From: Methanobacteriota archaeon
Lineage (GTDB): Archaea > Thermoplasmatota > Poseidoniia > Poseidoniales > Poseidoniaceae
Assembly: GCA_002726495.1 (NCBI GenBank)
Contig: PBTH01000046.1
Location: forward strand, 1 to 49,662
DNA length: 49,662 bases
Direction of reading: 5' to 3'
Notes under the pieces: generated by a model
Database searches by the model: none
Seen by the model: the letters and a program-made list of their open reading frames with translations, nothing else
Told to the model about the DNA's origin: nothing
Part shown: positions 1-38,465 of the stretch, piece after piece
Position numbering within the stretch: the first letter of the stretch is position 1
Layout of the letters: every line of letters starts with the position of its first letter
Made by a program: the position numbers and the translations under genes

Positions 1-106
1 CAGGTGCGGCTGGAGCCGCTGGCGCTGCTGGCATTGGTGGCGCTGGTGCCGCTGGCGCTGCAGGTGCTGGCGCGGGCGGGGCTGCTGGGGGGGCTGGGGG
101 TTGCAT
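1..106 (-). CDS. 5' end of a gene running off the window edge; Pro/Ala-rich N-terminus (possibly a MoxR-family AAA ATPase, from context only)
   Basis: Not in the ORF track. ATG at 106 reads MQPPAPPAAPPAPAPAAPAAPAPPMPAAPAAPAAP with no stop to the edge. GGAGG (114-118) lies 7 nt upstream, just after the stop of the preceding gene at 124. Confidence 0.75.
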   Translation of the reverse strand, partial: MQPPAPPAAPPAPAPAAPAAPAPPMPAAPAAPAAP

Positions 107-123
107 ATCTATTCCTCCTTGTT

Positions 124-1698
124 TCAATTACCCCAACGACGTATATGTGGGATTAGTTCCCTTAATTCCTCGTTGGAGTATGAGCGGTTTGAACTTACAA
201 GTTCAACCAGGCGTGGTTCCCGCACCATATGCATTACTTCGGCGGGAGATTTGCGAGCGAATTCATCGCGCGTCAAATCATTGAATTGGCGTACTTTGGA
301 GAGCAAAGCCTCCCGAGTACGCCGTTGGTATTGGGATGGGTCCAATTTTGTTGGACGCTCCCTGAATCGCGTCAAGTCAAAGACGTGACGCCAGTTTTCC
401 TTTTCTGGGACAACCATGATGGCGATCGCCAAAAGAGCGAAGAGGTTGAGGATGATAAGCCACTTGAGCACGCCGTCGCTGGTAAGCAAAACAATGGCGC
501 CAATCGCTTCAGTAAATGGCATTGAGAGTGTGCTTGAAACGTGACGGCTTTCATCAAAAACAATATTGAATTCGGAATATGCACGAGTCACTTGAGTTGT
601 AATATCCGTGTTATCGAATTCCATCATGTCCTCAATGAGGGCGGTGAAGAACATGGAGTTGCCATTCCAAGTCGTATCTCCAAGTCCGGAATTAAGACCT
701 TGAGAGTCGGTATCCCAGCACATGTGGCCGAAGTCAAGGTAGAGTTGTGAGTCGCACTGCTGCTTTCCAGTAGCTGTAGCGATTTCCTTGTCCCACAGGT
801 GATTAGCGAGTACGGAGTGATCGGAAACAAAAACGATGCTTCCTGTAACATCAACTTCTCCGTAGTTGTTGTTGGTTTTCTCATCCAAAACCGTCTGACC
901 TGGGTAATTGATGCGGATGATGAGGCCTGTTTCTCCTTCACCAAGCGTTGGGTTGTTCTCGCCTTTACCCAAATCAATTTGAGCAGAAGTAGATGCTTGT
1001 GCGAGAACATGGATCTCTCGGTCCGTATCAGCCTGGTCATCAAGCACTTGAATAGCGGTGGGTCGATGGAACAAAACAGGTATGCGGCAATTCTGGACTG
1101 TACGAGATGAAACATCTTGTGTTGAGCATGGAATGTACTTTTCATCGCCCATTGAATCAACTCCACGAGTAACGGATGAAACCGCCCAGAGTTTCTTTGT
1201 ATCTGGGCTGACACGCTCATCGTTGTCTGTGGTTACTTCGTAGTAACGGCCAGTTGAGGGGTCGTCCCGAACAGGTGCATCAAAGTACTTGACACCGAAT
1301 TCTTCAGCCACAAGTTGGGCGTTTGTTGAGTTGGAAGCAAGGATGACTTTTCCTCCACGTTCGGTGACGAAGTCATAGATTGCTGCTGCTTCTGCAGCAT
1401 CAAAGGGCTTCTCCGGTGCTGCGATGACAAGAAGTGTTCGATGAGGTTCCTGCCAATCGTTGACAAGCATTGGGGTTGACATGGTATTTGCAATGTTGAA
1501 CTTGGAGGTCTCCAAGTTTTCTCTCATTACGGTGAGTTGTTGGTCCGAAAACTCATCGTCGTTTTGGTAGGGAGAAAATACAGTTGTTTTCCCTGCTGAA
1601 ACCACAGCGATTACGAGCGTGGAAAGAGCGACGGAAACAATCAATCCAACCATGAGCCATGCTTCAAGACTCATACCGGATTTTTCTGCTTCAGCCAT
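124..1698 (-). CDS. DUF4350-like membrane-anchored protein
   Basis: N-terminal TM helix, a flavodoxin/GATase-like segment (TLLVIAAPEKPF...FVTERGGKVILAS; IVFVSDHSVLAN; IVFDESRH) and a late TM helix. Start moved from 1776 to ATG 1698 (MAEAEK), which has GGGTGA just upstream. Confidence 0.6.
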   Translation of the reverse strand: MAEAEKSGMSLEAWLMVGLIVSVALSTLVIAVVSAGKTTVFSPYQNDDEFSDQQLTVMRENLETSKFNIANTMSTPMLVNDWQEPHRTLLVIAAPEKPFDAAEAAAIYDFVTERGGKVILASNSTNAQLVAEEFGVKYFDAPVRDDPSTGRYYEVTTDNDERVSPDTKKLWAVSSVTRGVDSMGDEKYIPCSTQDVSSRTVQNCRIPVLFHRPTAIQVLDDQADTDREIHVLAQASTSAQIDLGKGENNPTLGEGETGLIIRINYPGQTVLDEKTNNNYGEVDVTGSIVFVSDHSVLANHLWDKEIATATGKQQCDSQLYLDFGHMCWDTDSQGLNSGLGDTTWNGNSMFFTALIEDMMEFDNTDITTQVTRAYSEFNIVFDESRHVSSTLSMPFTEAIGAIVLLTSDGVLKWLIILNLFALLAIAIMVVPEKENWRHVFDLTRFRERPTKLDPSQYQRRTREALLSKVRQFNDLTRDEFARKSPAEVMHMVREPRLVELVSSNRSYSNEELRELIPHIRRWGN

Positions 1699-1892
1699 CT
1701 TCTTCACCCAATCCATGTGACGCGCAACGCCATATACACATCTCGGAACTTCGCTCCACTCATAATGATTGCTCAAGGGTGCTCAAGAGAAAAGTGACAA
1801 TGTCTGGAAATCAATGAGAAGAATAACTTGGCAAAAGGCCGTGAATTAACCGAAAAATTACATTTTTAGGTGATTCAAAAAATTGAAACACA

Positions 1893-2843
1893 TTAAGAGT
1901 GTCGTCGTGCAACGAAAGCCGTTGTTAGAAGAATCACGAAGAATATTTCAATCAGCGAAAATGAAGGCATCGATTCAGAGCCAGTGGATGTTGTCTCTGA
2001 ATCATCGTCTTGATCGTTATCAGAAACGGTAGAATCGTCAGCGCTTGGAGCAACGACATTGACATTCATGGTCGAGGAACGTGTCATTTCATCTCCTTCG
2101 GATAGAACCGATATTGAAACCTCACAGGTTCGTTCTTGATGGCTGCTGGTCGCCTCAAGGCGTAATGTGAAGGATTTCTTGCCATTGCCATCTTTGTCGG
2201 TAACCCCTACAACCACATTCTCTAAGGATTCCAATCCAGTAACTGACAAATGGGGGCAGCTACGGATGGTCGCATCAGCGGATACGATTGCATCGTTGTT
2301 ATTGCCGAGGTTGCTCACCATCAAGGTGAATTCAACCCAGGAGCCCGAAAACAGTGTGTCGGAAGGAAGTTGAACCTCGGGGACAAGTTTGTACAAGCGT
2401 GGCGTGCTGATATCACCCTCAATTTCATTCTCGCCAACTGGAGTCCCTCCAACAATTTCTTCTCCTTTTATTGTTAGTTGAATGGAACCGTTTGGCGCAA
2501 ATGCTCGTACCGTCTCTGCATCTGCCCCGGTGATGGTAATGGTTACTGACTCATTGGTTGAACCGCTCACAGATACAGAATCAGGGCCATCAAAAATGAA
2601 CGGCCCGTCCTCATCGTAATCATAGGTCAAGTCAACATTGAGCTCATTTGAACGGTCATTGTTGATGAAAAAGACAAGTTCCCCCGACAGGTCCCAGTCA
2701 TCCTCAAGTTCAACGAGATACGTCGAATCCATGTCTGTTTCCCACCCCATTTCCCACGAAGGCGGCCCCAGATCTTGACCCGAGACAAACGGAACGCATG
2801 TGGTCATGAGAAATGCCAAGATGAACAAGAGTACTTTTCGCAT
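1893..2843 (-). CDS. Secreted acidic beta-rich (Ig-like) surface protein with C-terminal PGF-CTERM-like sorting signal
   Basis: Signal peptide MRKVLLFILAFL, an acidic S/D/T linker, then MPSF + hydrophobic helix + RRHS at the C-terminus. Confidence 0.65.
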   Translation of the reverse strand: MRKVLLFILAFLMTTCVPFVSGQDLGPPSWEMGWETDMDSTYLVELEDDWDLSGELVFFINNDRSNELNVDLTYDYDEDGPFIFDGPDSVSVSGSTNESVTITITGADAETVRAFAPNGSIQLTIKGEEIVGGTPVGENEIEGDISTPRLYKLVPEVQLPSDTLFSGSWVEFTLMVSNLGNNNDAIVSADATIRSCPHLSVTGLESLENVVVGVTDKDGNGKKSFTLRLEATSSHQERTCEVSISVLSEGDEMTRSSTMNVNVVAPSADDSTVSDNDQDDDSETTSTGSESMPSFSLIEIFFVILLTTAFVARRHS

Positions 2844-2847
2844 AAGT

Positions 2848-3828
2848 TCAGTTCTCCTTCATGATTCCTTTAAGCGCCCTTTTGGTCAACGTGTTTACCA
2901 TAGATCTACGATAACGAGGAGGTAATGCTGTGTTATTGACAGGTTTGACTGACTTTTGGATACTGATTGACATTGATTTGATATCAATACTGCCGTCATT
3001 TGACTCAAGATGTTGCCTTATCTGTTCGGAGTGCTCTTTGGGAATTGACTCAAGGGCTGTACTTGCAATTTGAAGTGTTTCGGATTGACCTGGAATCCAC
3101 GAGGCTGCGATGCCTGCTTCGGGAAAATCCCAAGACTCCCGGACTCGAAGTTTTTGATAACACCCCTCACGTTGCGAAGCGTCCTCGGGGAGGATCACCT
3201 TCAATAGAAATTCTCCTTCCTCAAGGATGTTCTTTTTCATTCCATCCAGTTGGTAAAACGAGGGCAATTCAATCGTACGCTCTCCATTTGGCCCAACGAT
3301 AAGAACCGAGGCATTGAGGACCATAAAATTCGGAGCAAGGTCTCCTTGGTAGGTTGCAACACAAAGCGTGTTCTGATTGGGGATCACGCGGCAGTCTGCA
3401 CCAGTTCCACAATCTGCTTTGTGGCACCAATCTATAGAACGACGCCAGTCTTCCGATTGGTTGTACCAGAAACAGCGAGTGTCAAGACACAGATTACCAC
3501 CGACAGTAGCGCTTTTCCGAATAAGAGACGAAGCTACTTTCGAGGCTGCCTCTCGCAGCAACGAATGGACGATTTCTGAAGAACTCAGCGTGTCAAGCGT
3601 CACCATGCATCCAATCTCGTTGGCAGAAAGTGTGAACGCATCGGGTATGCCTGCAAGCGAGATGACATGCGGCTTGGGATTGATACGCCATTTGTAATTT
3701 GGAAGAACGTCTGTTCCCCCAGCAACCCAATCAAAGGCTTGACCTTGCTCGAGCAAAGAGCCGGCAAGTTCACACGCCTCAGCCACGCTTTTTGGGTGAT
3801 GGAGTTCAAATGGAGGCATCAACATCAA
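2848..3828 (-). CDS. hcrB: Xanthine dehydrogenase-family FAD subunit, 4-hydroxybenzoyl-CoA reductase beta-like
   Basis: FAD motifs AGGTDVLPN and IRKSATVGGNLC, plus a Cys-rich insertion CLDTRCFWYNQSEDWRRSIDWCHKADCGTGADC of the HcrB [4Fe-4S] type. Confidence 0.8.
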   Translation of the reverse strand: MMLMPPFELHHPKSVAEACELAGSLLEQGQAFDWVAGGTDVLPNYKWRINPKPHVISLAGIPDAFTLSANEIGCMVTLDTLSSSEIVHSLLREAASKVASSLIRKSATVGGNLCLDTRCFWYNQSEDWRRSIDWCHKADCGTGADCRVIPNQNTLCVATYQGDLAPNFMVLNASVLIVGPNGERTIELPSFYQLDGMKKNILEEGEFLLKVILPEDASQREGCYQKLRVRESWDFPEAGIAASWIPGQSETLQIASTALESIPKEHSEQIRQHLESNDGSIDIKSMSISIQKSVKPVNNTALPPRYRRSMVNTLTKRALKGIMKEN

Positions 3829-6635
3829 GCATCATCCTCCATATGTCTTTGTTCTTTTTTGAGCCAGGCTCTTCCAGCGAATCCAAGTTCTGCTAACTGT
3901 TCAGGAAGCGGTTCGTCAGCCTCCCTCCATCCTTCTACTTGCTCACTAAGCGGTATATTCGGGTCAAATCCAAACAAAACACCGTTTACATAAGCAGAGG
4001 TATCTTCACTTCGCTGACGGAGACGGTCCCGAACTTCGTGCTCCTTTGCACGCTCAACCAATCCCTTTTGCAAGGGCCCATGAGTGAGCGTTGGAGGGGT
4101 GAGGTCCAGTGGGTCATCAACCCCTGTTTTCTTGAGATGTTTTTGGATTCCTTTGTAGACGACATCGGGTGTAAGGGGTAGGTCACGCATACGAACACCT
4201 GTTGCGTCATACACGGCGTTAACTACAGCAGGCAGAATTGGCAACAGAGGACCTTCCCCTGCTTCCTTTGCACCAAACGGCCCTTCTGGGTCGCTTGATT
4301 CAACGATAATCGGTTCGACATGGGGCATTTCATGCACAGATGGAATCTTGTATTCCAACAAGTTTGCATTTTGTAAATGACCTGTGCGTCCATAGACCAT
4401 TTTCTCGGACAAAACTTGACCCAACCCCATGTGGCATGAGCCGATGATCTGTCCACGAACCGCCAATGGGTTGAGCGCTTTTCCACAATCGTGTGCAGCC
4501 CAAACATTGGTGCATGAAACCTTGCCAGTTTCAACATCCACATCAACTTCAGCAACATATGCAGAGAACGAATAAGCAGGTGCAAGTCCTGCTGCCGCAC
4601 CTTTGTGGACACCTCCCATTGGGGGAGACCTGTATGCCCCTCGAGCGATGAGGGCGCCGGTGTCTTCCTGCGCCTTGTGCAATGCTTGCAAGTATGAAAC
4701 TCCTATTGCGGGGTCGTGCTTGTAGTAGATGCGGCGGTCATTGAGGACCAAAACATTGGGATGGTATCCCAACATCTCCCAAGCTGCCTTGAGCAGTTGG
4801 TCTCGGATACCAATCGCTGCACGAATGGCTGCATTCGCATTCATGAAGGTCACACGACTTGAATAAGAGCCCAAATCCACCGGACTTGTATCACTTTCAT
4901 GGCTCCGCACATGTATCATTTCAACGGGCAGAGCCAGTACTTCGGCGACGACTTGAGCGACGGCTGTTGTCGACCCTTGCCCGATGTCAGCAGCACCTGT
5001 ATGAACCGTCACCCCTCCGTCCATATCAACCTGGATGTGTACGGTTGCATGAGGGAAATTCTTCGGATCCCAATGAATGGGAAGGCCCGACCCCGAAATA
5101 AAGAAGCCACAACCGATTCCTATACCTTTTCCGAGAGGGAGTTGTCTGAATTTATTGTCCCAATCCGAGCCTTCTCTAACTCGAGTAAGTGCTTCACGCA
5201 TTCCATTTGAGGTGATGCGGAAACCGCTGATGGTACGACTGTGAGGGGGAAGAAGATTTGCTAATCGAAGGTCAATTGGGTCAACAGCCATTTGTTCAGC
5301 CATTTCATCCAATCCGACTTCAACTGCGCACCGAGTGTTGACTGCACCGTGACCTCTCATAGCCCCAGACGCCGGTTTATTGGTCCAAACACGAGCCCCA
5401 GTATAATGGAATGAACCCAATTCGTATGGAGCGGTAGCCAGCACGCCGTTGTAATAGGATGTCACGTGACCAAACGATGCGAATCCACCACCATCAATGA
5501 GGGCGTCAATATCAAATCCAGAGATGCGCCCTTCCTCATCGGCTGTCATCTTAACATCAATATGAGAAGGATGTCGCCCCCTGTTGATCCAGTACACTTC
5601 TTCTCGGTCAAAGGTAATCCGAATAGGACGTCCTGCTTTACGAGCAAGAATTGCAGCACACATCTCGTGCGGGAATGGGTCGGATTTTCCTCCAAACCCA
5701 CCGCCAACAAAAGTACGGACGACATTGATTTGGTGCATTGGTACATCAAGAACGGTCGATAGAGCCCGATGGGTGTAATGAGGTACTTGTTGGGGCGTGT
5801 ACAACTGTAACCTGCCGTTAGGGTCCCAATGTGCGACAACTGCATGAGGTTCGGTGAAGCCATGATGAACGCCAGCCATGGTCCATGAACCATGAGAAGA
5901 GGCATGTGGGGTCTTGACCAAGGAACGGTCTCCGAATTCTTGGAACACCCGCTTCTGAACGTTGGTTCGGGCCAAGTGGTATTTTCCACGCCAGTGAATG
6001 GGCTCATCGTGGTCTTCAAGACCCTTTTTCGGGTCAAAAACTGGTTCAAGGAGCTCCCATTCAATATCGAATAACGAAAGGGCCTGAATCGCTGTGGCTT
6101 CGTCAACGGCTGCGACGCAAGCAACCAAATCGCCGACGTGGCGTACCTTTTCTACAGCCATAGCATGTTCGTCTTTTGTTACCGGAAGTACTCCGAAACG
6201 GTTTGGGGCGTCTTCCCCTGTTGCAACTGCGAGAACACCAGGTAGTGCTTCAACACGAGATGTATCAATTGATTTTATGCGAGCATAATGATGGGGTGAG
6301 CGAAGAATTTTACCGATAGCTTCTCCCTTGAGGCGGACATCGTCACCGTACCATGCTTGGCCCGTAACTTTTGCATTGGAATCAACCAAAGCCATTGGTT
6401 TACCTACGGCAGTTCCTGTTCGGTCACGGTCGTGGATGTGGTCGCCTGCCGGCTTTGGTTCACGGCCACCTACGGTTTCAGGGATGAAATCCAAATCTCG
6501 AGGGCGCATTTCTGGCTCAGAACCCCCGGAGCCTGGAGGAGGGAAGGCTTGCTTACCAGCCACACGCTTTCCATCACGCCGTTGGCCACCTTTATTGGAC
6601 CCAGGCTGTTGATGGTAACTCCCCATAACAATCAC
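3825..6635 (-). CDS. hcrA: Xanthine dehydrogenase-family molybdopterin subunit, 4-hydroxybenzoyl-CoA reductase alpha-like
   Basis: Motifs KVTGQAWYGDD, QVPHY, GGGFGGK, GAMRGHG, DIGQGS, GSYSSR and GPFGAKEAGEG. 4-nt overlaps with both neighbours. Confidence 0.8.
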   Translation of the reverse strand: MIVMGSYHQQPGSNKGGQRRDGKRVAGKQAFPPPGSGGSEPEMRPRDLDFIPETVGGREPKPAGDHIHDRDRTGTAVGKPMALVDSNAKVTGQAWYGDDVRLKGEAIGKILRSPHHYARIKSIDTSRVEALPGVLAVATGEDAPNRFGVLPVTKDEHAMAVEKVRHVGDLVACVAAVDEATAIQALSLFDIEWELLEPVFDPKKGLEDHDEPIHWRGKYHLARTNVQKRVFQEFGDRSLVKTPHASSHGSWTMAGVHHGFTEPHAVVAHWDPNGRLQLYTPQQVPHYTHRALSTVLDVPMHQINVVRTFVGGGFGGKSDPFPHEMCAAILARKAGRPIRITFDREEVYWINRGRHPSHIDVKMTADEEGRISGFDIDALIDGGGFASFGHVTSYYNGVLATAPYELGSFHYTGARVWTNKPASGAMRGHGAVNTRCAVEVGLDEMAEQMAVDPIDLRLANLLPPHSRTISGFRITSNGMREALTRVREGSDWDNKFRQLPLGKGIGIGCGFFISGSGLPIHWDPKNFPHATVHIQVDMDGGVTVHTGAADIGQGSTTAVAQVVAEVLALPVEMIHVRSHESDTSPVDLGSYSSRVTFMNANAAIRAAIGIRDQLLKAAWEMLGYHPNVLVLNDRRIYYKHDPAIGVSYLQALHKAQEDTGALIARGAYRSPPMGGVHKGAAAGLAPAYSFSAYVAEVDVDVETGKVSCTNVWAAHDCGKALNPLAVRGQIIGSCHMGLGQVLSEKMVYGRTGHLQNANLLEYKIPSVHEMPHVEPIIVESSDPEGPFGAKEAGEGPLLPILPAVVNAVYDATGVRMRDLPLTPDVVYKGIQKHLKKTGVDDPLDLTPPTLTHGPLQKGLVERAKEHEVRDRLRQRSEDTSAYVNGVLFGFDPNIPLSEQVEGWREADEPLPEQLAELGFAGRAWLKKEQRHMEDDA

Positions 6636-7234
6636 TTCGCATGCCCAGGAGGCATCGTTGGGTCTTCAGGCCCAGATGGATGGGGGTCAGGATGAGGGTC
6701 GCTTGCAGGAGCAACGGATTCGCCATCTCCACGATGTAGCACCGCTGCTTCCTCAATTGAATCTATGATCTGTTGATAACCAGTGCATCGGCAAAGGTTT
6801 CCTTCTATGGCTTCAGCAATTTCATCCCTGGTCGGATTGTCATTGTGATTGAGTAAAGCCTGTGATGCTATCAAAAAACCGGGTGTGCAGAAACCACATT
6901 GGGAGCCTCCATGAAGCGCAAAGCATGTCTGAATTGGTGCAAGATGAGCTCCTTCTGACAAACCCTCAACGGTGAGAATTTCTGTGTCTTTCACCTGTCC
7001 TGCGAGTGTTAAGCAGGACAATTTTGGAACACCGTCAATCATAACAGTACAACACCCACAGGTGCCGAGGTCACAGCCTCGTTTGACACCAAGCGTGCCT
7101 ACTTTGTCACGAAGAACATCCAGAAGAACAGCATTTGACGGAGCGAGGACTTCAACTGGGTTTCCGTTAACGACTCCAGACCAGCGTTCGCTTGATGCGG
7201 GCGGAGTCATGGCGATATGTTCTTCTCCAACCAT
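6632..7234 (-). CDS. hcrC: Xanthine dehydrogenase-family 2x[2Fe-2S] subunit (HcrC/CoxS-like)
   Basis: Motifs GCDLGTCGCCTV...SC and QCGFCTPG...GNLCRCTGY. Confidence 0.85.
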   Translation of the reverse strand: MVGEEHIAMTPPASSERWSGVVNGNPVEVLAPSNAVLLDVLRDKVGTLGVKRGCDLGTCGCCTVMIDGVPKLSCLTLAGQVKDTEILTVEGLSEGAHLAPIQTCFALHGGSQCGFCTPGFLIASQALLNHNDNPTRDEIAEAIEGNLCRCTGYQQIIDSIEEAAVLHRGDGESVAPASDPHPDPHPSGPEDPTMPPGHAK

Positions 7235-7270
7235 GTTCGTCCCTGCCTTGCCGTTAGCGTCACACTCTTT

Positions 7271-7289
7271 GATAATTCGGGGTATTATC
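7271..7289. promoter_or_regulatory. GATAAT-N7-ATTATC inverted repeat upstream of the hcrCAB-like operon; candidate operator
   Basis: gataattcggggtattatc in the 78-bp intergenic gap, 36 nt upstream of the hcrC start. Confidence 0.35.
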
Positions 7290-7312
7290 TCTCAAAAAAA
7301 CCCCAACCCTAC

Positions 7313-9292
7313 TCATTCGGGTTTGGTTTCATCCATCAAAATTGCCTCTATGTCCTCATCGGGTATTGTGGCCCACTGGATTCGTTCAACTTCGATGGCC
7401 TCTTCTGATTTGTTAAGGCCAAACATGACCAAAGGAACCAGAACAATTCCGAGAATCATTCCTGCGAAACCTACCAAAACAGTGCTGCCAGAGAACATTG
7501 ATTCGCTTTCTTCAGCTACCCCATCTTTGCTAACATCCATCAACATAATGTCGGCCGTGATGATTGGGGTTGAGGAAAAATTCGTTTCGCCAGCCTCCAT
7601 TATACCCCGAATGGAGATGGTGTGGTTTCCTTGAAGTTCAACACCGGGGAGATGCTCAATTTCATGAACGATATCAATGACCTCTAATTCAATATTTTTC
7701 GTATGCTCGTATGAATGAATGTTCGTCCAGTCATCAAGCAAATGGTTGCTTCGCCACTGAATGGTTTCGACGCCCTCTGTGATGGTAAACTCTAGTGAGT
7801 CCCCGTCAAACATGTGGACGCGATTGTCCATTCCTGAAGGAGTTGTCATGTTGAGAGTCACCGTGTTGTCAAAGGTATAATCCTGCTGTGCCGCTTCCAT
7901 TACAGCATCAAGGGCACGAACTTCTCCGTGACCGTAAACGTTGTTTTGGCGGTTCTTTGGAATAAGATCGTCAGCGCATGGTTCGTTGGCAGCCATGTAA
8001 TGACATTGCCTGTAGGTTGAGGTTTCTTGCATGATGTTGCGAATGTCAAACGGTGAAAGGTCGGGGTTCGCTTGGTACATCAATGCTGCAACACCCGCTG
8101 CGCCCGGAGTTGCCATCGATGTCCCCGACATGTCCGTGTATTGATCACCGGTGTTGAAAGCGACGGACATCACGCTTGAACCAACATATGCAATGTTTGG
8201 CTTAACGCGCCCTTCTTCAGTCGGGCCTTGGCTTGAGTAGATTGCAATGGCTGAATTCTTATCCAAAGCACCGACTGTAATCACATCTTCAGCGGAACCC
8301 GGCGTACCAATTTGAGCCGATACACCGTTATTTCCTGCTGCGATGAACAATGCGATTCCGGAACGTACCATTGTATTCGCGTATCGGTTGACACTGTCCT
8401 CTTCGGACGAAGTCCACTCAATCGCTCCTGGGCCACCCAGGCTCATCGATGCAGCACGAATGTTGAATTGGTAGCGGTTGTCAACGGTCCATTCCATGCC
8501 TCTCATGACGGTTGCAAAAGACCCTGAGCCACCTGCGTCAAGGACCTTTACTCCAACGAGGTTCGCCTGAGGTGCCATTCCGATGTGCTCGTAATTTGGA
8601 GCACCTGTACCTGCAGTTGTACCCGCACAGTGGGAGCCGTGTCCTTGGTCGTCGTAGGGGAAAACCTCAGTGCCGTTGGTGAGGTCTGGATTGTTAACAG
8701 GGTCAAAGAAACCAATCACCTTTGGGTCGTTGGTGGAATTATCATCATCCAAATCATCCAAACTTGCGTGAGCTCCGTCAATTCCGGTATCGATGATGGC
8801 TACAGTCACGCCGGAGCCATCGTAGCCAGTCTCTTGCCATGCTAGGTCAACACCGTGCAAGACTGCTGCATCGCCGTTTTGAACGGTCAAAATTCCATCC
8901 AGTTCAATCATGATGACGCCGGGGATATTGAGGGTTTCACGAACCAAGTCAACATGAACTCTACCTGCGAGGGCGTCAATATGCTTCAACAACCATTGAT
9001 GCTCGTATCCGACTTCACGCTCAAGCAATTCAATGTCCTGCAAGGTAGGTGTTCGGTCAAAGTCGATGATCAGGGGGAGCGTGTTATCCTCATCAAGGAA
9101 CACGGGATTGTCCTTGTGAAATTCAACCATGTCTCCAATGGAATTCTTGTTTTTGTCCACTGTGGTTTCAATCCACCAACCTTCTTCTTCAACATTTGAA
9201 TCTGATTCAATTTGGATTGGCGTTGCAAGTGCCAGAGTCGGAAGCAACATCAAGGTCAGGCAAAATGCGCTGAGGAGTTTTTTGATTAGCAA
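7313..9292 (-). CDS. Secreted, C-terminally membrane-anchored S8 (subtilisin-like) serine protease
   Basis: Catalytic triad motifs IIDTGID, HGSHCAG and SGTSMATP, oxyanion motif AAGN, signal peptide and C-terminal TM. Start placed at TTG 9292, downstream of GGTGA (ORF track gives 9313). Confidence 0.92.
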   Translation of the reverse strand: MLIKKLLSAFCLTLMLLPTLALATPIQIESDSNVEEEGWWIETTVDKNKNSIGDMVEFHKDNPVFLDEDNTLPLIIDFDRTPTLQDIELLEREVGYEHQWLLKHIDALAGRVHVDLVRETLNIPGVIMIELDGILTVQNGDAAVLHGVDLAWQETGYDGSGVTVAIIDTGIDGAHASLDDLDDDNSTNDPKVIGFFDPVNNPDLTNGTEVFPYDDQGHGSHCAGTTAGTGAPNYEHIGMAPQANLVGVKVLDAGGSGSFATVMRGMEWTVDNRYQFNIRAASMSLGGPGAIEWTSSEEDSVNRYANTMVRSGIALFIAAGNNGVSAQIGTPGSAEDVITVGALDKNSAIAIYSSQGPTEEGRVKPNIAYVGSSVMSVAFNTGDQYTDMSGTSMATPGAAGVAALMYQANPDLSPFDIRNIMQETSTYRQCHYMAANEPCADDLIPKNRQNNVYGHGEVRALDAVMEAAQQDYTFDNTVTLNMTTPSGMDNRVHMFDGDSLEFTITEGVETIQWRSNHLLDDWTNIHSYEHTKNIELEVIDIVHEIEHLPGVELQGNHTISIRGIMEAGETNFSSTPIITADIMLMDVSKDGVAEESESMFSGSTVLVGFAGMILGIVLVPLVMFGLNKSEEAIEVERIQWATIPDEDIEAILMDETKPE

Positions 9293-9462
9293 AGTCTCAC
9301 CAGTTAATTCCAAGCAGGTGGTGTTTTTGAACCCATTGGGGACCTGTGAAGCATCCGCTGGACCTGTTCACGGCAACAACTGGAATCTTAACAAACCAAT
9401 ATTTTACCCTCAATGGCGGGTGAAACATTAAGTCCTATTGTAATTGAAAAGGAGCGATTGAC

Positions 9463-12400
9463 ATGGCAGCACCCCGTAGACAAAACCAAGGCGCACCAAA
9501 GCGAAGACCGACCCCCACACCTCAGCCGTTAGGGCAAACAGCATCCCCTTACCAAGGGTCACTTTCTACCCAAGGTGCACCAATTTCGGCGCCGATACTC
9601 ACCGTTGGTCCAAATGCTGCAAAGCAAAGTCAAGACCTGTTTATGATGAAACTATCACAGGTCGTCATGATGGGGATTGGATTCCTCGCAATATGGGGTG
9701 GAATCTTCAGTGTCGCCTTTGATGAAGAAGCCACGAACGAGAACTTCCTTGTCCTGTTCATAGGTGGACTGGCTTCCTTTTTGGTCGCAATAGCCATCAT
9801 TGAATTGCAAAGTAAAAAGAACAACTACAGGCTGTATGACATTCACAATTATTTCCTTGGAATCGCCTTCTTCTTCTCCACAATTGGAGTCCTTTGGGGA
9901 ACCCGATACATGATGGGCGTGATGACCGGAACCTTTGGATTGGACTGGTTTATGGAAAACCCTGACAATTATACAACGACCGACTGGTCACCTAACGCAA
10001 ACGGCATCTATGCACAACTGGCAACCTGCTTGCTTCTCACTTTCGGCCATTATCGATTGCTCCAGCGATATTCAGGCGATACAGGATTTGGATGGGGTGT
10101 TGCGACCTACGCACCAATGGCCATCCTTCTCGCTGGCGTTGGCCCATGGATTCGATGGTCTGGCAACGTAGTGAGTTACGAACTTGGCATCAGCATCATC
10201 GTTATTTCTCTCGTTTCCATGGAAATGGCCCTACGATCAAACAAAGCACTCAATTTCGGAGTTGTTGCATTCGCATCAGGCCTCGTTCCACTTGTCTACG
10301 AATTTCTTAATGATGTCCCTGATGAAAGCAAGGGTGGGGCGCTATCCCTCATGGTGTTCATCATCGCCTTACAAGGCTATTATGCTGCGCGTAGTGACCT
10401 CAGAAAAGAGGTCATGGAACGTGCCTCGCTGTTCCTTGTCGGCCAAGTTGTCTTTGCAATCTTACTGATGAGAGATGCAGACTTCAACCTCATTCTTGGC
10501 CCATTCCGTGCGAGTGAGTATGCATCGCTTTCATCCTACGTCTCACTCCCTGTCGCTCTATGGTGTACGGTGCTGCTCGCATATTTCCCAGCAGTATTAC
10601 AACAACGCGTCCCATGGATGCCGATTGGTCTCGCAGTCAGCCTTGTAGCACTTCCAAACGACACCTCAACGATTCCGTGGGCACTCAGCATTATTATGAT
10701 CCCTTACATGCTCTTCATTTCCAAGATTGCCCGTGAGTGGGTCGTCAATGTTACCGTTTTGGCCTTTGGAATTTCATACCTCCTCACTGATTTTGGTGGA
10801 ATCATAGAAGAATTAACTCCCAAGGAGACCTTCGGTGGCACAATTCTGCATATCATCCTCCCCATCTTCATTGTAGTTATTTCTGAAATGGGCCGTCGAC
10901 AAGGAAAGATCAGCACTGCAATCTCTCTAGGATTGCTCGGAGCAGTGGTATGTTCACGAGCTATTCTTGACCCAGAATGGTTCATGCCATGGCTCTTCAT
11001 CGGATACATGTTTTACCTCAATATTGACATCAAGCAAAAGAGTGATCCAAATGAATTCAAAGACCGCAAGGAACTCACCTTGTCTGCTGGATTTACATCG
11101 GTGATCGTATTAGCATTGGGAGTGTTTGACAAAATCAAACTGCCCGATCATGAATTCGTCAATCGTCTATCACCAGACGGGCTTGAACCTCAATTCTTGA
11201 TCTTAGGGGTCGCCCTCTATTCACTCTCAAGAGTCATTGCAAATTACGAGTTTGATATCGGTTCAATAGGAGCCTGGTTGGACCATGGACACCAAAACGC
11301 CCCTCTTTATGATATTGAAACAAACTCGTGGATTGCTCAAACTCAAGAAGAAGAAAAGACATTGGAATCCGTCCTTGAGCGAGCATGGACTCCACTTGCA
11401 CGGATCTCATTGCTTTGTTCCCTACTCCTGCTCACCTTGACCGTCATTTCAGTTGATGCCTATGTGACAAAACCTCAATGGATTCTTCTTATTGCAATTC
11501 CAATCGGAATCTTGGTCAACGAAATCATATCCATGAAAACAATCAACTCAACAACAAGAGCCACTGGAATCGGCCTGCTAGTTGCCATTGCATTCCCAAT
11601 TTCTGTTCAATTGCAAGATGTGGCTTACAATTTGGTTGGGAACGGCGATCTGTTTGTTGCTGGAGTCCTTCTCGATCTGCTTCTCGTTTCTGCACCGCTA
11701 ATCGTCAACGGAATCATATCAAAACGTGGGGTAGACAGAGATAGCTTGAATTTCTTTGCTGATGCTACTGCCTATGTATTCCTACTCATTCTTGCATCAC
11801 TTGATTCTTCAGGAGGATTGTTGTTTATCCCACTGTTTGCCCTCGTAGCATACAAAACGATACAACACCGGCATTATGGAGCAGCATTGTTTGCTCCATT
11901 AGCAGTGTGGTTCATGGATGACCTTTGGTTCACCAGAGTCGGAGTCACGAATCGGATTCTTGAGGGCTTGCCAAGTGATATTGAGAACTATCTAAGAGAT
12001 TCTCACAGTGGCCCATTCGCGGCTCTAGGAGGGCTACTTGTCGCGGCTCACATGGCCTGCATGCTCTTTGCAATGTACCGTGAAGAACAACGTGAACCAG
12101 GGTACCAAGAAGTGCTGGCAACATTATGGCTTGGCCTCGCCTTCTTATCGGTCCTACCCGATGGATTTTGGATTCCAACCATCATTACCTACACCATCAT
12201 GATGTACCTTTGGTACACAGAAAACAGCACGGCATTGCCTTACATGTTGGGAATCTTGTTCTTTTCACTCTTCATTGGATTTGAAAACAGCAACACCTTT
12301 TCAAGCATCAGCAGCGATGATGCTTGGGCCTGGAGTGGACTTGTTGTCGGGTTGAATGGTGTAGGATTTGCGCTCATGCATCGAGCAAACATCTTGTTCA

Positions 12401-13494
12401 AGAGCGACCCTGATGACGACGATGCTCAGAGAACTCAAGAGGCTACATCACTCTTGAGTCAGCAAATTGCCAGCATTGGGTTCCTCATCAGCTACGACAT
12501 TTTCTACGGAATCGGTCCGTTAATTGGACTTATGATGATTGGTTATTCCGCCTTCAAGAAAGGACAGACAACAAGCCTCATGCTGTTCCCCCCATTGCTC
12601 TCTTTTGCAATCGTAAACATTCTCATGCAGGCCAATATTGGAGATTCTGATTTCCACAGCACCTTGGGTGGAGCTATTTTGGCAGCCCAGGGACTCATGT
12701 TTACGCTCTTGTCCAACAAGGATGATTTGGTTTATGATTGGGAGAATGTCACTTGGGACTCGGATGATAGTTTCTTCGAATTCATGGACAGAATCGGAAT
12801 ATCAGGTGTGGCTTATACCGTTGTTGGCCTGTTCCTTACCTTTGACGCCATCGACCTTGACTCCTTTGCCTACCTTGCTATAACGGTCTATCTTGTCATT
12901 CTTGGAATCCAAGGATTCAGTGAGGAAAACGACGCTCGATGGCGCCGGGGCATCGGTGGATACGGTTCAGTCTTCACCGCATTCTTGCTCACAACCACAA
13001 TCAGCAACGACTTGTTCCGTGGAATCACCGTTGTCCTTATGGGAATTCTCGCTCTTGGATTCGGATTCCTTTTCATGCAGCGAACCAATACTGAGAACAT
13101 CTACGAGGATCCGATGACATCTCCTGAAGTTCCCGCTGCGCCAAGTTTGCCAACTGCCAATGTTGAGCCAATGATAGAGGAACAGGAAGAAGAAGTGGAA
13201 ACCGTAGAAGAGGAAATCACTGCGTCACAGGAAACGGATGAGATCGAGGAGGAGATGGTTGATGAAGTTGAAGAAGAAGTGATGGCCGAGGAAGCTGTGC
13301 CCGTTGAACAGACTCAACATTCCGGACTTTTGATGACAGAAGATGGATTTGCTGTACGCTTGCCTCCTGATTCAGTTAACAACATCATCAATTCTCTAAA
13401 GCAAACACCACATGAAGGTTATTTGCCAGTTGTTGGTTTCTCCCCAAGTGGACAAATCGTGTTGAACTTTGAATCAGAATCCAACGGCGCTTGA
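9463..13494 (+). CDS. Very large polytopic membrane protein, function unknown
   Basis: 1343-aa ORF with AAGGAG RBS, dozens of hydrophobic helices, a basic Pro-rich N-terminus and a Glu-rich C-terminal linker. Confidence 0.85.
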   Translation: MAAPRRQNQGAPKRRPTPTPQPLGQTASPYQGSLSTQGAPISAPILTVGPNAAKQSQDLFMMKLSQVVMMGIGFLAIWGGIFSVAFDEEATNENFLVLFIGGLASFLVAIAIIELQSKKNNYRLYDIHNYFLGIAFFFSTIGVLWGTRYMMGVMTGTFGLDWFMENPDNYTTTDWSPNANGIYAQLATCLLLTFGHYRLLQRYSGDTGFGWGVATYAPMAILLAGVGPWIRWSGNVVSYELGISIIVISLVSMEMALRSNKALNFGVVAFASGLVPLVYEFLNDVPDESKGGALSLMVFIIALQGYYAARSDLRKEVMERASLFLVGQVVFAILLMRDADFNLILGPFRASEYASLSSYVSLPVALWCTVLLAYFPAVLQQRVPWMPIGLAVSLVALPNDTSTIPWALSIIMIPYMLFISKIAREWVVNVTVLAFGISYLLTDFGGIIEELTPKETFGGTILHIILPIFIVVISEMGRRQGKISTAISLGLLGAVVCSRAILDPEWFMPWLFIGYMFYLNIDIKQKSDPNEFKDRKELTLSAGFTSVIVLALGVFDKIKLPDHEFVNRLSPDGLEPQFLILGVALYSLSRVIANYEFDIGSIGAWLDHGHQNAPLYDIETNSWIAQTQEEEKTLESVLERAWTPLARISLLCSLLLLTLTVISVDAYVTKPQWILLIAIPIGILVNEIISMKTINSTTRATGIGLLVAIAFPISVQLQDVAYNLVGNGDLFVAGVLLDLLLVSAPLIVNGIISKRGVDRDSLNFFADATAYVFLLILASLDSSGGLLFIPLFALVAYKTIQHRHYGAALFAPLAVWFMDDLWFTRVGVTNRILEGLPSDIENYLRDSHSGPFAALGGLLVAAHMACMLFAMYREEQREPGYQEVLATLWLGLAFLSVLPDGFWIPTIITYTIMMYLWYTENSTALPYMLGILFFSLFIGFENSNTFSSISSDDAWAWSGLVVGLNGVGFALMHRANILFKSDPDDDDAQRTQEATSLLSQQIASIGFLISYDIFYGIGPLIGLMMIGYSAFKKGQTTSLMLFPPLLSFAIVNILMQANIGDSDFHSTLGGAILAAQGLMFTLLSNKDDLVYDWENVTWDSDDSFFEFMDRIGISGVAYTVVGLFLTFDAIDLDSFAYLAITVYLVILGIQGFSEENDARWRRGIGGYGSVFTAFLLTTTISNDLFRGITVVLMGILALGFGFLFMQRTNTENIYEDPMTSPEVPAAPSLPTANVEPMIEEQEEEVETVEEEITASQETDEIEEEMVDEVEEEVMAEEAVPVEQTQHSGLLMTEDGFAVRLPPDSVNNIINSLKQTPHEGYLPVVGFSPSGQIVLNFESESNGA

Positions 13495-13542: not shown

Positions 13543-14091
13543 ATGAGCGGAACCTCTCAACGAATGGTTTGGATTGATCTTGAGATGACGGGTCTTGACC
13601 TTGAACGGGAATCAATAATTGAAATCGCAACCGTGATTACAGACAGTGAATTGAACCTTCTCGCAACTGGCCCCAATCTCGCCATCAAAGTCTCGCAAGA
13701 TCTTCTTGATGGAATGGACGATTGGAACACACGCCATCATCATGGTAGCGGCTTGGTTCAACGTATTCACGATGAAGGCATGGAGTTGCTTGATGCACAG
13801 AAAGCGACCGTGGAATTTCTCAAAAAATGGATTGAGCCAGGAACTGCTCCCCTGTGCGGCAATAGCGTATGGAATGACCGCCAATTCCTTGCGAAAGAGA
13901 TGCCCGAGGTCTTGGAACTTCTCCATTACCGAATGGTCGATGTTTCAACCATCAAAGAACTCGCTCGCCGATGGTACCCTGATGTACCGTTTTATGTCAA
14001 AAAAGGGGCACATCTCGCCCTTGATGACATATTGGAATCCATCGAAGAATTGAAACATTTCAGAAAAGAACTGTTCGTTCGTCAATCTTGA
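13543..14091 (+). CDS. orn: Oligoribonuclease (DEDDh exonuclease)
   Basis: Motifs WIDLEMTGLD, IIEIA, CGNSVWNDRQFL, HYRMVDVSTIKELARRW and HLALDDILESIEEL. Start is 13543 or 13516. Confidence 0.93.
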   Translation: MSGTSQRMVWIDLEMTGLDLERESIIEIATVITDSELNLLATGPNLAIKVSQDLLDGMDDWNTRHHHGSGLVQRIHDEGMELLDAQKATVEFLKKWIEPGTAPLCGNSVWNDRQFLAKEMPEVLELLHYRMVDVSTIKELARRWYPDVPFYVKKGAHLALDDILESIEELKHFRKELFVRQS

Positions 14092-14954
14092 CGCCAACTT
14101 GGTTGGCTTGGGTCTTTCTTCTTGAATGACGACATGATTTGAGCGACGACTGCTACAGCAATTTCTTCTGGGGATTCAGCTCCGATGTTCAGTCCAATTG
14201 GACAAATGACCTGGTCCAACAAACGTTCAGAATGCCCTTGAGACTCACATTCCTTACGAAACGCCTGCCATTTGGACCGGCTTCCAATGACTCCGATTCT
14301 TGGAGCGTTTTCACCGTCAAGCAATACATCATCTTGATTGAACATGTTCAACAGACCAAGCAGTCGGTGCTGGTCCTCGCTCCAATCATGGCCAAGAAGC
14401 AAGATATCAGAAAATCGGTTCATACTGGCGGGGGATTCATTGGCGAAGAGGCCATCAATACCAGCGGATGTTCTTTGAACTGCATTTGGATAAACATCGA
14501 CTGAGGCAAACTCTGGACGTGTGTCGTGAACCGAGTAGGACCACCCAACTTGGTCAAGAAGTGTTGAAAGCGCCTGTCCGCAATGTCCACCGCCCATGAT
14601 GAAAATGTGGGGCATAGGAATCATCACCTCGAGCGAGAGGGTGACACGCCCTCCGCACAATGAATCAAGAGGCTGTACTTCATAGCCCTTCGCCCCCTTG
14701 TTTAAACCATAAGTAATGACCTCGGCAGCGGGTGACGATGTTTCCTTGAGCAAGGTTCTGCATCGGTCTAGAATCTTATGCTCAAGTCCTGCTCCACCGA
14801 CGGTGCCTTCCCATTGGCCATCAGGAGAAGACATGGCCAATCGGGCTCCAGTTTTTCCCGGCACACTTCCCGATGTATTGAGGACCGTAACAAGAACAAC
14901 CTTGCGTTGTTCGTGCAATTGGGCCAAAGCCCATTGGAGGACACGAGCCGTCAT
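14082..14954 (-). CDS. xdhC: XdhC/CoxI-family molybdenum cofactor insertion chaperone
   Basis: Motifs GSVPGKTGA, GTVGGAGLE, CGG, GGGHCG, GVIGSRSK and PIGLNIGAESPEEIAVAVVAQ. Confidence 0.9.
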   Translation of the reverse strand: MTARVLQWALAQLHEQRKVVLVTVLNTSGSVPGKTGARLAMSSPDGQWEGTVGGAGLEHKILDRCRTLLKETSSPAAEVITYGLNKGAKGYEVQPLDSLCGGRVTLSLEVMIPMPHIFIMGGGHCGQALSTLLDQVGWSYSVHDTRPEFASVDVYPNAVQRTSAGIDGLFANESPASMNRFSDILLLGHDWSEDQHRLLGLLNMFNQDDVLLDGENAPRIGVIGSRSKWQAFRKECESQGHSERLLDQVICPIGLNIGAESPEEIAVAVVAQIMSSFKKKDPSQPSWRQD

Positions 14955-14976: not shown

Positions 14977-15588
14977 TCATATCCCTTGTCCTTCTGTAAA
15001 ATAAGACCGAAGTTCCGGCCCTTGTTGATTTAATTTGAGAAGGTCATCGGGCGTGTCAATGTTTAGATGAAGCCAAGGTGCATCAACTGGCAGTTCCTCA
15101 AAAGAGAGTATGTCTCGCAGCGGAGTATCACTTGGAGCAGCTAGAATTCGTTTAATGTCAGAGTCCTGGACAGCCACAGGATGCCCTCGTTGACCGTTGT
15201 GAACTGGACAGACCGAACGCTTGTGGAGCAACAACTGTTTCACAAGATTTGTATTCCATCCCGGCCGGTCTACGGGAGCCATTACCAAGCGTTGGGGGAG
15301 TGTTCCAATGTCAGTGTGAAGGGAAGAAATACCGTTCTGAAGGCTACCTGTTCTGCCCAATTCGGGATGAGGATTGATACTGACGTTCACACCGGGAACT
15401 GCAAGAAGGATGTCCACGGACAGTTCTGAACGGGTCACGACGACGATTGGATCGCACCCTGCATTGGCCAAATGTTCGTACGCCCATCCAACCAATGTCT
15501 TTCCTTCAAACTCCACCAGTGCTTTTGGTTTCCCAAGCCTGCTGCTCGCACCTGCTGCAAGAATTACTGCTGGAACAGCACGAGCCAT
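14977..15588 (-). CDS. mocA: Molybdenum cofactor cytidylyltransferase-like nucleotidyltransferase (MocA/YgfJ family)
   Basis: Motifs ILAAGASSRLGKPKAL, PVDRP, GQRGHPV and NIDTPDD; adjacent to xdhC. Start moved to ATG 15588. Confidence 0.8.
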   Translation of the reverse strand: MARAVPAVILAAGASSRLGKPKALVEFEGKTLVGWAYEHLANAGCDPIVVVTRSELSVDILLAVPGVNVSINPHPELGRTGSLQNGISSLHTDIGTLPQRLVMAPVDRPGWNTNLVKQLLLHKRSVCPVHNGQRGHPVAVQDSDIKRILAAPSDTPLRDILSFEELPVDAPWLHLNIDTPDDLLKLNQQGPELRSYFTEGQGI

Positions 15589-15660
15589 GGTCGTTCGAAG
15601 CGCTGCCTGCAAAAGTGCTTTTCCTTTTTCCTTCAAATACAGTAGGAGTCACGAACGGTC

Positions 15661-35209: not shown

Positions 35210-35221
35210 AGATACAACCCC

Positions 35222-36130: not shown

Positions 36131-36132
36131 GC

Positions 36133-38456: not shown

Positions 38457-38465
38457 GCTGATACC

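Follow-up and report, generated by a model that had tools for sequence, protein, structure and literature searches.

What reaction is catalysed by the three-gene molybdenum enzyme operon that occupies positions 2848-7234 of a contig from an uncultivated marine archaeon? The window analysed here, by which we mean the whole stretch of 49,662 nucleotides (nt) of contig PBTH01000046.1 (assembly GCA_002726495.1), belongs to a member of the Poseidoniaceae within the Poseidoniales (Marine Group II), and an earlier note, made from the sequence alone, had read its operon as resembling 4-hydroxybenzoyl-CoA reductase (Hcr), a reductive enzyme of anaerobic aromatic-degrading bacteria, in an apparently aerobic host. 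Our analysis gives us high confidence in the structural and evolutionary part of an answer, namely that the operon encodes a three-subunit xanthine oxidase-family enzyme of the molybdopterin cytosine dinucleotide (MCD) type and with an extra [4Fe-4S] site, which is a sister of Hcr, vertically inherited and core to the Poseidoniales. As for the reaction, we lean weakly towards an Hcr-like, ferredoxin-driven dehydroxylation, with oxidative hydroxylation nearly as likely.

The FeS-Mo-FAD gene order and the 4-nt gene overlaps described in the earlier note are borne out by the open reading frame (ORF) coordinates and by Pfam. All three genes lie on the minus strand: 6632-7234 encodes the gamma subunit, which bears two [2Fe-2S] clusters (200 amino acids (aa), P0001; Fer2_2, 102 bits, and Fer2, 28 bits), 3825-6635 the catalytic, MCD-binding alpha subunit (936 aa, P0002; Ald_Xan_dh_C, MoCoBD_1 and MoCoBD_2), and 2848-3828 the beta subunit, which binds flavin adenine dinucleotide (FAD; 326 aa, P0003; FAD_binding_5, 102.9 bits). 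The overlaps fall at 6632-6635 between gamma and alpha and at 3825-3828 between alpha and beta, and the alpha ORF starts with GTG, with an ATG 3 codons further in. The motifs QVPHY, GAMRGHG, SYSSR and GAKEAGEG reported earlier were all found in the Mo subunit, as was the Cys-rich stretch CLDTRCFWYNQSEDWRRSIDWCHKADCGTGADC in the FAD subunit. Membership of the xanthine oxidase family (MCD type) is indicated by the Mo, FAD_binding_5 and Fer2_2 subunits together with the catalytic Glu and an XdhC chaperone, and the genome of origin (1.73 Mb, 81% complete, of which the window is contig C48) holds only one Mo subunit of this family. The GC content of the window is even (0.46-0.51), with no sign of a foreign island, and the sources of near-identical proteins carry the names Poseidoniaceae, Poseidonia or Poseidoniales. 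The gamma subunit ends in a Pro/Asp/His-rich tail of ~30 aa (6632-6730), which lies outside the region aligned to the Hcr gamma model (residues 22-164).

Comparison with characterised enzymes revealed that Hcr from Thauera is the nearest characterised and solved relative of all three subunits. The Hcr models TIGR03193, TIGR03194 and TIGR03195 are the top NCBIfam models for the three proteins, each of which scores under its equivalog cut-off (gamma 171.5 for a cut-off of 257.8, alpha 774.8 for 994.55, and beta 222.1 for 404.55). Among solved structures, the best matches are 1rm6_A for alpha (588 bits) and 1rm6_B for beta (139.1 bits), with 1rm6 far ahead of CO dehydrogenase, quinoline oxidoreductase, PaoABC and the xanthine dehydrogenases. 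An AlphaFold2 model of alpha, with a predicted template modelling score (pTM) of 0.86, also returned 1rm6 as its top Foldseek match (TMt 0.96, root-mean-square deviation 1.8-1.9 Å, 40-41% identity), and the second-best match reached a TMt of 0.87. A best match to Hcr is weak evidence in this part of the family, however, because among the 60 closest representatives of 50%-identity clusters TIGR03194 is the top model for 57, while its cut-off is passed by just one, P0139 (1301.7 bits, 40% identity to the window's alpha subunit).

The same scores bear on the proposal that the enzyme is a broad-range aldehyde oxidoreductase for detoxification, akin to PaoABC of Escherichia coli (5G5G). PaoABC likewise has three subunits, and its FAD subunit PaoB, like that of a Methylobacillus aldehyde oxidase, carries a Cys-rich insert; in addition, the available text of a 2026 preprint labels a Mo system of marine Flavobacteriaceae "PaoABC/YagTSR-like" (PMC13404670), a system that may or may not be the sister clade described below. 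Against this, PaoABC scores are far lower than those for Hcr, both for family models (PaoC 289.5 with a cut-off of 1180, versus 774.8 for the Hcr model of alpha; PaoA 121.5 with a cut-off of 322 for gamma) and in the PDB (PaoC 202 versus 588 bits; PaoB 56.8 versus 139.1 bits). PaoABC is also periplasmic, according to the accessible part of its description (PMC3958847), whereas no twin-arginine export signal was apparent when the sequence of the window's FeS subunit (P0001) was read by eye. The grouping with PaoABC that the earlier note had named as evidence against an Hcr-like enzyme was thus not seen, and we consider an aldehyde oxidoreductase of this kind very improbable.

Active-site motifs were compared in an alignment of 32 representatives. 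This revealed that GAMRGHG, SYSSRVTFM and GAKEAGEG are common to a wide set of Hcr-like, uncharacterised clusters, and that the catalytic Glu of the family is retained as E794 in GAKEAGEG, a residue that we take to be equivalent to bovine Glu1261 and Hcr Glu726. At three other sites the window's clade and true Hcr have different forms: QVPHY versus QVPYY in the Q loop, GGKSD-PFPHE versus G(H/A)RTE or GGKSE after GGGF, and TxYYNG (TSYYNG in the window) versus ILYxG (ILYTG or ILYAG) or VLYSG in the YYNG region. The Thauera sequence carries the true-Hcr forms, as seen in the alignment to 1rm6. The motif set that the earlier note took as the mark of Hcr is therefore no such mark, since characterised Hcr has QVPYY and the remaining motifs belong to wider uncharacterised relatives as well.

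A similar conclusion was reached for the Cys-rich loop of beta (residues 114-156; 3361-3489, minus strand), a predicted [4Fe-4S] site. In a HMMER alignment to 1rm6_B, Cys119, Cys135, Cys146 and Cys156 of beta fall on Cys122, Cys138, Cys146 and Cys155 of HcrB, and the insertion reported earlier is accordingly present. The four Cys are kept in every one of the 62 FAD subunits that related loci yielded, among them those from Chitinophaga, Flavobacteriales and Saprospiraceae. As these relatives include aerobic Bacteroidota, the loop marks the wider clade and not the direction of electron flow; together with its presence in PaoB, this removes the extra [4Fe-4S] cluster as a signature of Hcr.

Trees of the Mo subunit were built with FastTree (77 rows, 769 columns, PucD-like outgroup) and with the quick mode of IQ-TREE (42 rows, 762 columns, LG+G4) from rows hand-picked among the best matches, with fragments under 700 aa excluded and with 7 and 5 Poseidoniales loci, respectively, besides that of the window. 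The Poseidoniales form one clade with a support of 100 in both trees; it is sister to other Thermoplasmata in IQ-TREE (support 89), a node that FastTree leaves unresolved, and the two together group with Planctomycetota, Polarisedimenticolia and KSB1 (support 99 and 98). A wider clade, supported at 100 in both trees and comprising 33 of 77 rows in FastTree and 22 of 42 in IQ-TREE, adds the Bacteroidota with fused FeS-Mo subunits and a bacterial metagenome-assembled genome (MAG) locus, L060. The true Hcr representative P0139 and two Acidobacteria (L073 and L085) make up a separate clade (100 in FastTree, 99 in IQ-TREE), which joins that of the window with a support of 90 in FastTree and 97 in IQ-TREE and with an intermediate node at 81-83. 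On these sequences the clade of the window is thus sister to true Hcr and not inside it. For the Mo subunit, the phylogeny asked for in the earlier note has Hcr as the nearest characterised relative, in a separate sister clade, and the note's second alternative, a new substrate or direction for an enzyme of the Hcr clade, is still a fair description once "of the Hcr clade" is replaced by "sister to the Hcr clade".

Relative to the HcrCAB/HbaBCD system (Thauera aromatica, 1RM6/1SB3), then, the enzyme has the same FeS-Mo-FAD order, three-subunit cofactor set, positions of the four loop Cys, and motifs GAMRGHG, SYSSRVTFM and GAKEAxEG with the catalytic Glu, but it falls under the equivalog cut-offs, belongs to a sister clade, has other motifs in its active site, carries additional extensions on alpha, and is a core enzyme of an order whose member here is aerobic and in which class I benzoyl-CoA reductase was not found. 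We are therefore confident that it is an Hcr-sister enzyme within the xanthine oxidase family, and neither Hcr proper nor PaoABC nor a xanthine dehydrogenase.

Xanthine dehydrogenase deserves separate mention, as it is the function under which this enzyme appears in the one mention that we found in the literature: the accessible part of Damashek et al. 2021 reads xdhC and yagS in Thalassarchaeaceae MAGs as putative xanthine dehydrogenase genes and links the putative xdh genes to high transcription of the pbuG permease (PMC9723583). A role in purine catabolism is also in keeping with the nearby XdhC gene and with the operon's Mo subunit being the only one of its family in the genome. It is opposed by the model scores of alpha (XdhA 512.3 with a cut-off of 780 and PucD 382.8 with a cut-off of 783.65, versus 774.8 for the Hcr model), by the position of XdhA-like and PucD-like representatives outside the window's clade in both trees, and by the residue that follows GGGFGGK, which is Ser in the window and Glu in the PucD-like representative. 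That Glu is presumably the xanthine-binding Glu802 of bovine xanthine dehydrogenase. Uricase (PF01014) and OHCU decarboxylase (PF09349) were each found in 0 of 61 Poseidoniales genomes, where other types of uricase were not searched. We regard xanthine dehydrogenase as the most improbable of the functions considered and, with the PaoABC-like one, as the least supported.

The enzyme is a vertically inherited, single-copy core gene product of the Poseidoniales. Its Mo subunit has a match in 150 of the 151 species genomes that were sampled from the order, among them all 58 with a completeness of at least 90%, and in 22 of 22 genera, with a single match in nearly all genomes, an identity never below 67%, and most matches covering residues ~1-25 to ~934 of the window protein. 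Two extensions of alpha are specific to the order, an N-terminal one of ~76 aa (6408-6635, minus strand; conserved GYxQQPG, PGSGG and HxHD) and a C-terminal one of ~100 aa (3828-4133, minus strand; conserved YxNGxLFGxDP and AGxAW). Both are conserved order-wide and missing from every non-Poseidoniales relative aligned, including Thermoplasmata, Planctomycetota and true Hcr; by phmmer, the N-terminal extension was detected in 34 of 35 Poseidoniales loci and the C-terminal one in 35 of 35, while neither was detected in 45 other loci. No second copy of the C-terminal extension was found by phmmer in the genome of origin. In the AlphaFold2 model, residues 1-42 have predicted local distance difference test scores under 50, and from there to residue 70 the score is ~60, whereas the C-terminal extension reaches 75-96 and contains a long helix at residues 855-874.

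Sequencing libraries point to the presence of the operon in seawater. Among the runs listed, 20, drawn from 9 studies, contain parts of the stretch, and 19 of the 20 are recorded as RNA. In five metatranscriptome runs from seawater, the share of sampled words found is 38-51%; the runs with small shares (X6 to X20) were, with the exception of X6, not used to judge habitat. Four runs from two studies were compared with positions 1-10000 of the window, which yielded RNA-library contigs of at least 93% identity on all three genes. Two of these bridge the junction of beta and alpha (X2, 3652-4224; X4, 3725-4111), and a third (X1, 6670-8212) extends from the gamma gene to that of the peptidase upstream. 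These contigs attest to presence in seawater libraries of two studies and not to a level of expression, as carry-over of DNA is possible. Taken together, the single copy in essentially every genome, the lineage-specific additions and the RNA-library contigs imply a central role for the enzyme.

By analogy with Hcr, we tentatively favour a ferredoxin-driven dehydroxylation of an aroyl-CoA-type substrate, to which we assign a probability of a little over one in three. Hcr is ferredoxin-dependent and works with an inverted electron flow. In the window's enzyme, electrons would pass between a ferredoxin-type protein, the [4Fe-4S] cluster on beta, FAD, the two [2Fe-2S] clusters on gamma and Mo on alpha, with reduced ferredoxin supplied by a 2-oxoacid:acceptor oxidoreductase. 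The ring hydroxyl para to the thioester would be removed from 4-hydroxybenzoyl-CoA or an analogue, and the product might then pass to the BoxB-like di-iron epoxidase that is universal in the order rather than to an anaerobic benzoyl-CoA reductase. We lean this way because the nearest characterised chemistry is that of Hcr, because clade-mates with identical motifs lie in benzoyl-CoA-type or CoA-ester clusters, and because both a source of reduced ferredoxin and a BoxB-like consumer occur in the genomes of the order. Further support comes from Ucdh of Enterocloster bolteae, a second reductive dehydroxylase of the xanthine oxidase family, which according to the available text of a 2025 PNAS paper has three subunits, removes a phenolic hydroxyl that stands para to a carbonyl (in an ester) which withdraws electrons, and also has Hcr as its nearest characterised relative, at 32.7% identity (PMC12771579). 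Compared by description, Ucdh differs in belonging to a strict gut anaerobe and in acting on a free polyphenol.

The clade-mates as a whole are uncharacterised relatives from Thermoplasmata, Planctomycetota, Acidobacteriota and KSB1 (L041-L067), together with the FeS-Mo fusion type of the Bacteroidota (L052-L082); three of them, all bacterial, lie in CoA-ester clusters. At 44-57% identity, they belong to the same clade as the Poseidoniales enzyme, have its active-site motifs and 4-Cys loop, and have XdhC and MocA nearby, but lack the N- and C-terminal extensions; no characterised member was found among them in the literature searched. In L060 (254-16573), an Hcr-like operon with QVPHY, KSD-PFPHE and YYNG lies inside an anaerobic benzoyl-CoA-type cluster that encodes Had (432.5 bits, over its cut-off of 338.65), Dch-like (232.5 bits) and BcrD-like (280.7 bits) proteins, the latter two under their cut-offs, along with an HGD-D protein, two activases, a CoA ligase and a thiolase. 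For the function of the entire QVPHY clade, this locus is a candidate anchor. Closer to the window's enzyme, the operons of L044 and L067 are surrounded by genes for crotonase, thiolase, acyl-CoA dehydrogenase and 3-hydroxyacyl-CoA dehydrogenase, to which L044 adds a Zn-ADH and the alpha subunit of a 2-oxoacid:ferredoxin oxidoreductase. The Bacteroidota loci (Chitinophagaceae, Flavobacteriales and Saprospiraceae; for example L075:5396-9116) encode an FeS-Mo fusion of ~925-945 aa, and SDR, hemerythrin, radical-SAM and HGD-D family proteins recur beside it, odd company for nominal aerobes.

We surveyed the pathway partners in the genome of origin and in the order. A two-subunit, ferredoxin-type 2-oxoacid:acceptor oxidoreductase is present in the genome (TIGR03710, 523.9 bits, over the cut-off of 482.75). 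Of the bcr and box genes that were sought, as proposed earlier, only BoxB-like ones were found. HGD-D proteins of the BcrB/C type (class I) were found in 0 of 61 Poseidoniales genomes, and none was seen in the genome of origin or in the window itself, a search that did not specifically seek class II enzymes of the BamB type; one divergent AFOR-family protein in the genome of origin gave only 83 bits to AOR. BoxC scored over its cut-off in 0 of 61 genomes, the best matches being ordinary crotonases at ~90 bits, and on this ground we reject the canonical Box pathway, for which BoxA was not searched. Likewise, none of the 38 other window ORFs scanned matched benzoyl-CoA reductase, Box or AMP-ligase families, in agreement with the earlier statement that no benzoyl-CoA genes or CoA ligase lie nearby. 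Neither an AMP-binding nor an ATP-grasp_5 match was found in the genome of origin; since an AMP-binding gene occurs in 58 of 59 high-quality Poseidoniales genomes, the missing CoA ligase reflects 81% completeness and not absence.

A BoxB-like gene, in turn, is present in 148 of 151 Poseidoniales genomes. In the genome of origin it lies at C13:50024-51298 and encodes a di-iron protein (TIGR03225, 223 bits, cut-off 499) whose best PDB match is BoxB 3per (181.5 bits); the ORF has 424 aa, and the true start is probably near residue 40. Its surroundings (C13:45334-56798, that is, L005:2335-13799) include two crotonases, of which one most resembles "oxepin-CoA hydrolase, alternative type", as well as a 3-hydroxyacyl-CoA dehydrogenase, an aldehyde dehydrogenase, MoaE and MoaC. 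An HTH_10 regulator precedes the BoxB-like gene itself, and a 185-aa ORF without family match follows and overlaps it. The locus has the appearance of a Paa/Box-like ring pathway for CoA esters in this order, one so far undescribed. We do not take the co-occurrence of the Hcr-like and BoxB-like genes as a functional link, because both are near-universal and a presence profile cannot link them. Another HTH_10 regulator precedes the operon in Thalassarchaeaceae, but the two are alike only in the DNA-binding domain (32% over 62 residues) and so provide no evidence of co-regulation.

Much weighs against a dehydroxylase. Beyond the scores under the equivalog cut-offs, the sister position to Hcr in the trees (where some of the nodes joining the two have a support of only 80-90) and the departure of the active-site motifs from those of true Hcr, the Cys-rich insert is also that of oxidative enzymes, PaoB and the Methylobacillus aldehyde oxidase among them. 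Thauera Hcr is oxygen-sensitive, and the organism is aerobic, as judged from the O2-dependent HemF, whose presence in the window we confirmed (35222-36130; PF01218, 450 bits). Class I benzoyl-CoA reductase and BoxC, as described above, were not found; most Poseidoniales genomes have only one match to an AMP-binding ligase, and a universal single-copy core gene is unusual for a peripheral aromatic pathway. The clade-mates, too, are an uneven guide: the Dch-like and BcrD-like proteins of L060 fall short of their cut-offs, and in the closest non-Poseidoniales loci (n=6) the operon and XdhC/MocA lie among ribosomal, eIF-6 and TFIIB genes and not among CoA-ester genes. Finally, the family members characterised so far are mostly oxidative, as stated in the available text of the Ucdh report (PMC12771579). 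The paradox of a reductase in an aerobe, around which the earlier note was built, accordingly stands as far as the aerobe is concerned, but it is softened by the ferredoxin-type 2-oxoacid oxidoreductase and by the BoxB-like CoA-ester locus.

Many of these points argue equally for an oxidative molybdenum hydroxylase or dehydrogenase, acting on a heteroaromatic acid, on an aroyl-CoA in the reverse of the Hcr reaction or on another activated C-H bond, which we consider nearly as likely as dehydroxylation. In such an enzyme, electrons would run from Mo through [2Fe-2S], FAD and [4Fe-4S] to a protein acceptor, ferredoxin or another, from which they would enter the aerobic respiratory chain. It would suit a family in which, as far as the accessible text relates, only two reductive members are known (PMC12771579), and an aerobic host; the catalytic Glu that hydroxylases need is kept, the [4Fe-4S] loop is found in oxidative PaoB, and the motifs differ from those of true Hcr. 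The core status of the gene in its order, the housekeeping surroundings in its nearest relatives and the carriage of the sister form by aerobic Bacteroidota point the same way. Conversely, the gene context offers no candidate substrate for an oxidation, the nearest characterised enzyme is a reductase, and of the clade-mates that share the motifs, L060 has its operon in an anaerobic benzoyl-CoA-type cluster and L044 next to a ferredoxin-reducing oxidoreductase.

If dehydroxylation is nonetheless the reaction, it could form part of an oxygen-tolerant hybrid route for phenolic acids in all Marine Group II archaea, which rank with the most numerous archaea in sunlit ocean waters. In this route an Hcr-like dehydroxylase would be followed by ring opening through the BoxB-like epoxidase together with Paa-like hydratase, aldehyde dehydrogenase and 3-hydroxyacyl-CoA dehydrogenase steps. 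Such a route would require neither a dioxygenase nor a benzoyl-CoA reductase, and the order-specific extensions would perhaps help a ferredoxin-driven dehydroxylase to work in an aerobe. We offer this order-wide pathway as a speculative and, on balance, unlikely proposal.

Genes for maturation of the enzyme lie upstream of the operon. An XdhC-type chaperone for insertion of the molybdenum cofactor (Moco), likely accessory to the enzyme, is encoded at 14082-14954 (minus strand; XdhC_C, 98.8 bits; XdhC_CoxI, 53.9 bits), and next to it, at 14977-15636 (minus strand), lies the gene of a MobA/MocA-like nucleotidyltransferase (NTP_transf_3, 101.8 bits), which likely makes the cytosine dinucleotide form of Moco. 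An XdhC gene no more than a few genes upstream of the operon is a feature of many related loci, both inside and outside the Poseidoniales, and the MocA-like gene adjoins it upstream of the operon in loci of Thalassarchaeaceae, other Thermoplasmata and Bacteroidota. A ThiF/MoeB-type adenylyltransferase-rhodanese fusion (24631-25800, minus strand) possibly provides sulfur transfer in molybdopterin synthesis for the enzyme.

Downstream, a gene at 1893-2843 (minus strand) starts 4 nt after the FAD gene and recurs in 35 of 35 Poseidoniales loci. Its product combines a signal peptide with an acidic Ser/Thr-rich linker and a membrane anchor at the C terminus, with no Pfam match; we rejected it as a fourth subunit on account of this surface-anchor architecture and the missing Pfam match, and assign it to the adjoining module, DUF4350 / MoxR AAA_3 / DUF58. 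The order of genes in Poseidoniales is surface-anchored protein, DUF4350 membrane protein, MoxR AAA_3 ATPase, DUF58 and a further protein, present in 35, 32, 25, 24 and 23 of 35 loci, respectively, counts that are limited by contig ends. In the window the module covers 1893-2843 and 124-1776 (minus strand), in related loci it extends past the position where the window starts, and beside the operon in other Thermoplasmata it is absent.

Elsewhere in the window, HemF is part of a near-complete heme block (32928-42518) with GluTR-like, ALAD, GSA aminotransferase and UroD genes, a 566-aa porphobilinogen deaminase-uroporphyrinogen-III synthase fusion (39430-41130), an amine-oxidase-like protein that is probably protoporphyrinogen oxidase, and a ferrochelatase on the other strand, which amounts to a bacterial-type protoporphyrin route in an archaeon. 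At 19470-22073 (minus strand), a single protein of 867 aa unites two E1 parts of a 2-oxoacid dehydrogenase, an alpha-like one (E1_dh) and a beta-like one (Transket_pyr, Transketolase_C), in a genome that also has the ferredoxin-type 2-oxoacid oxidoreductase. A 1343-aa ORF at 9463-13494 (plus strand) has no Pfam match at E<=1e-5; a homologue of ~1380 aa (cluster 21) occurs near the operon in 8 Poseidoniaceae loci.

Poseidoniales are major uncultivated heterotrophs of the surface ocean with small genomes, and databases give their enzyme three names: 4-hydroxybenzoyl-CoA reductase, xanthine dehydrogenase family protein and aldehyde oxidase. Our literature search found nothing that links Poseidoniales or Marine Group II with (4-)hydroxybenzoyl-CoA reductase; a paper that turns up for Poseidoniales and benzoyl-CoA concerns, in its available text, bcr genes of another order (PMC9239135). 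New here are the single-copy core status of the enzyme across the order, the order-specific extensions of alpha, the seawater RNA-library contigs over all three genes, and an order-wide survey of partners in which class I benzoyl-CoA reductase, BoxC and uricase were not found and the BoxB-like protein and the 2-oxoacid oxidoreductase were present. A settled substrate would correct claims of "anaerobic aromatic degradation" or "purine catabolism" that annotation alone brings into ocean metagenomes. Were the reductive reading true, the enzyme would be the xanthine oxidase family's third dehydroxylase and its first from an aerobe.

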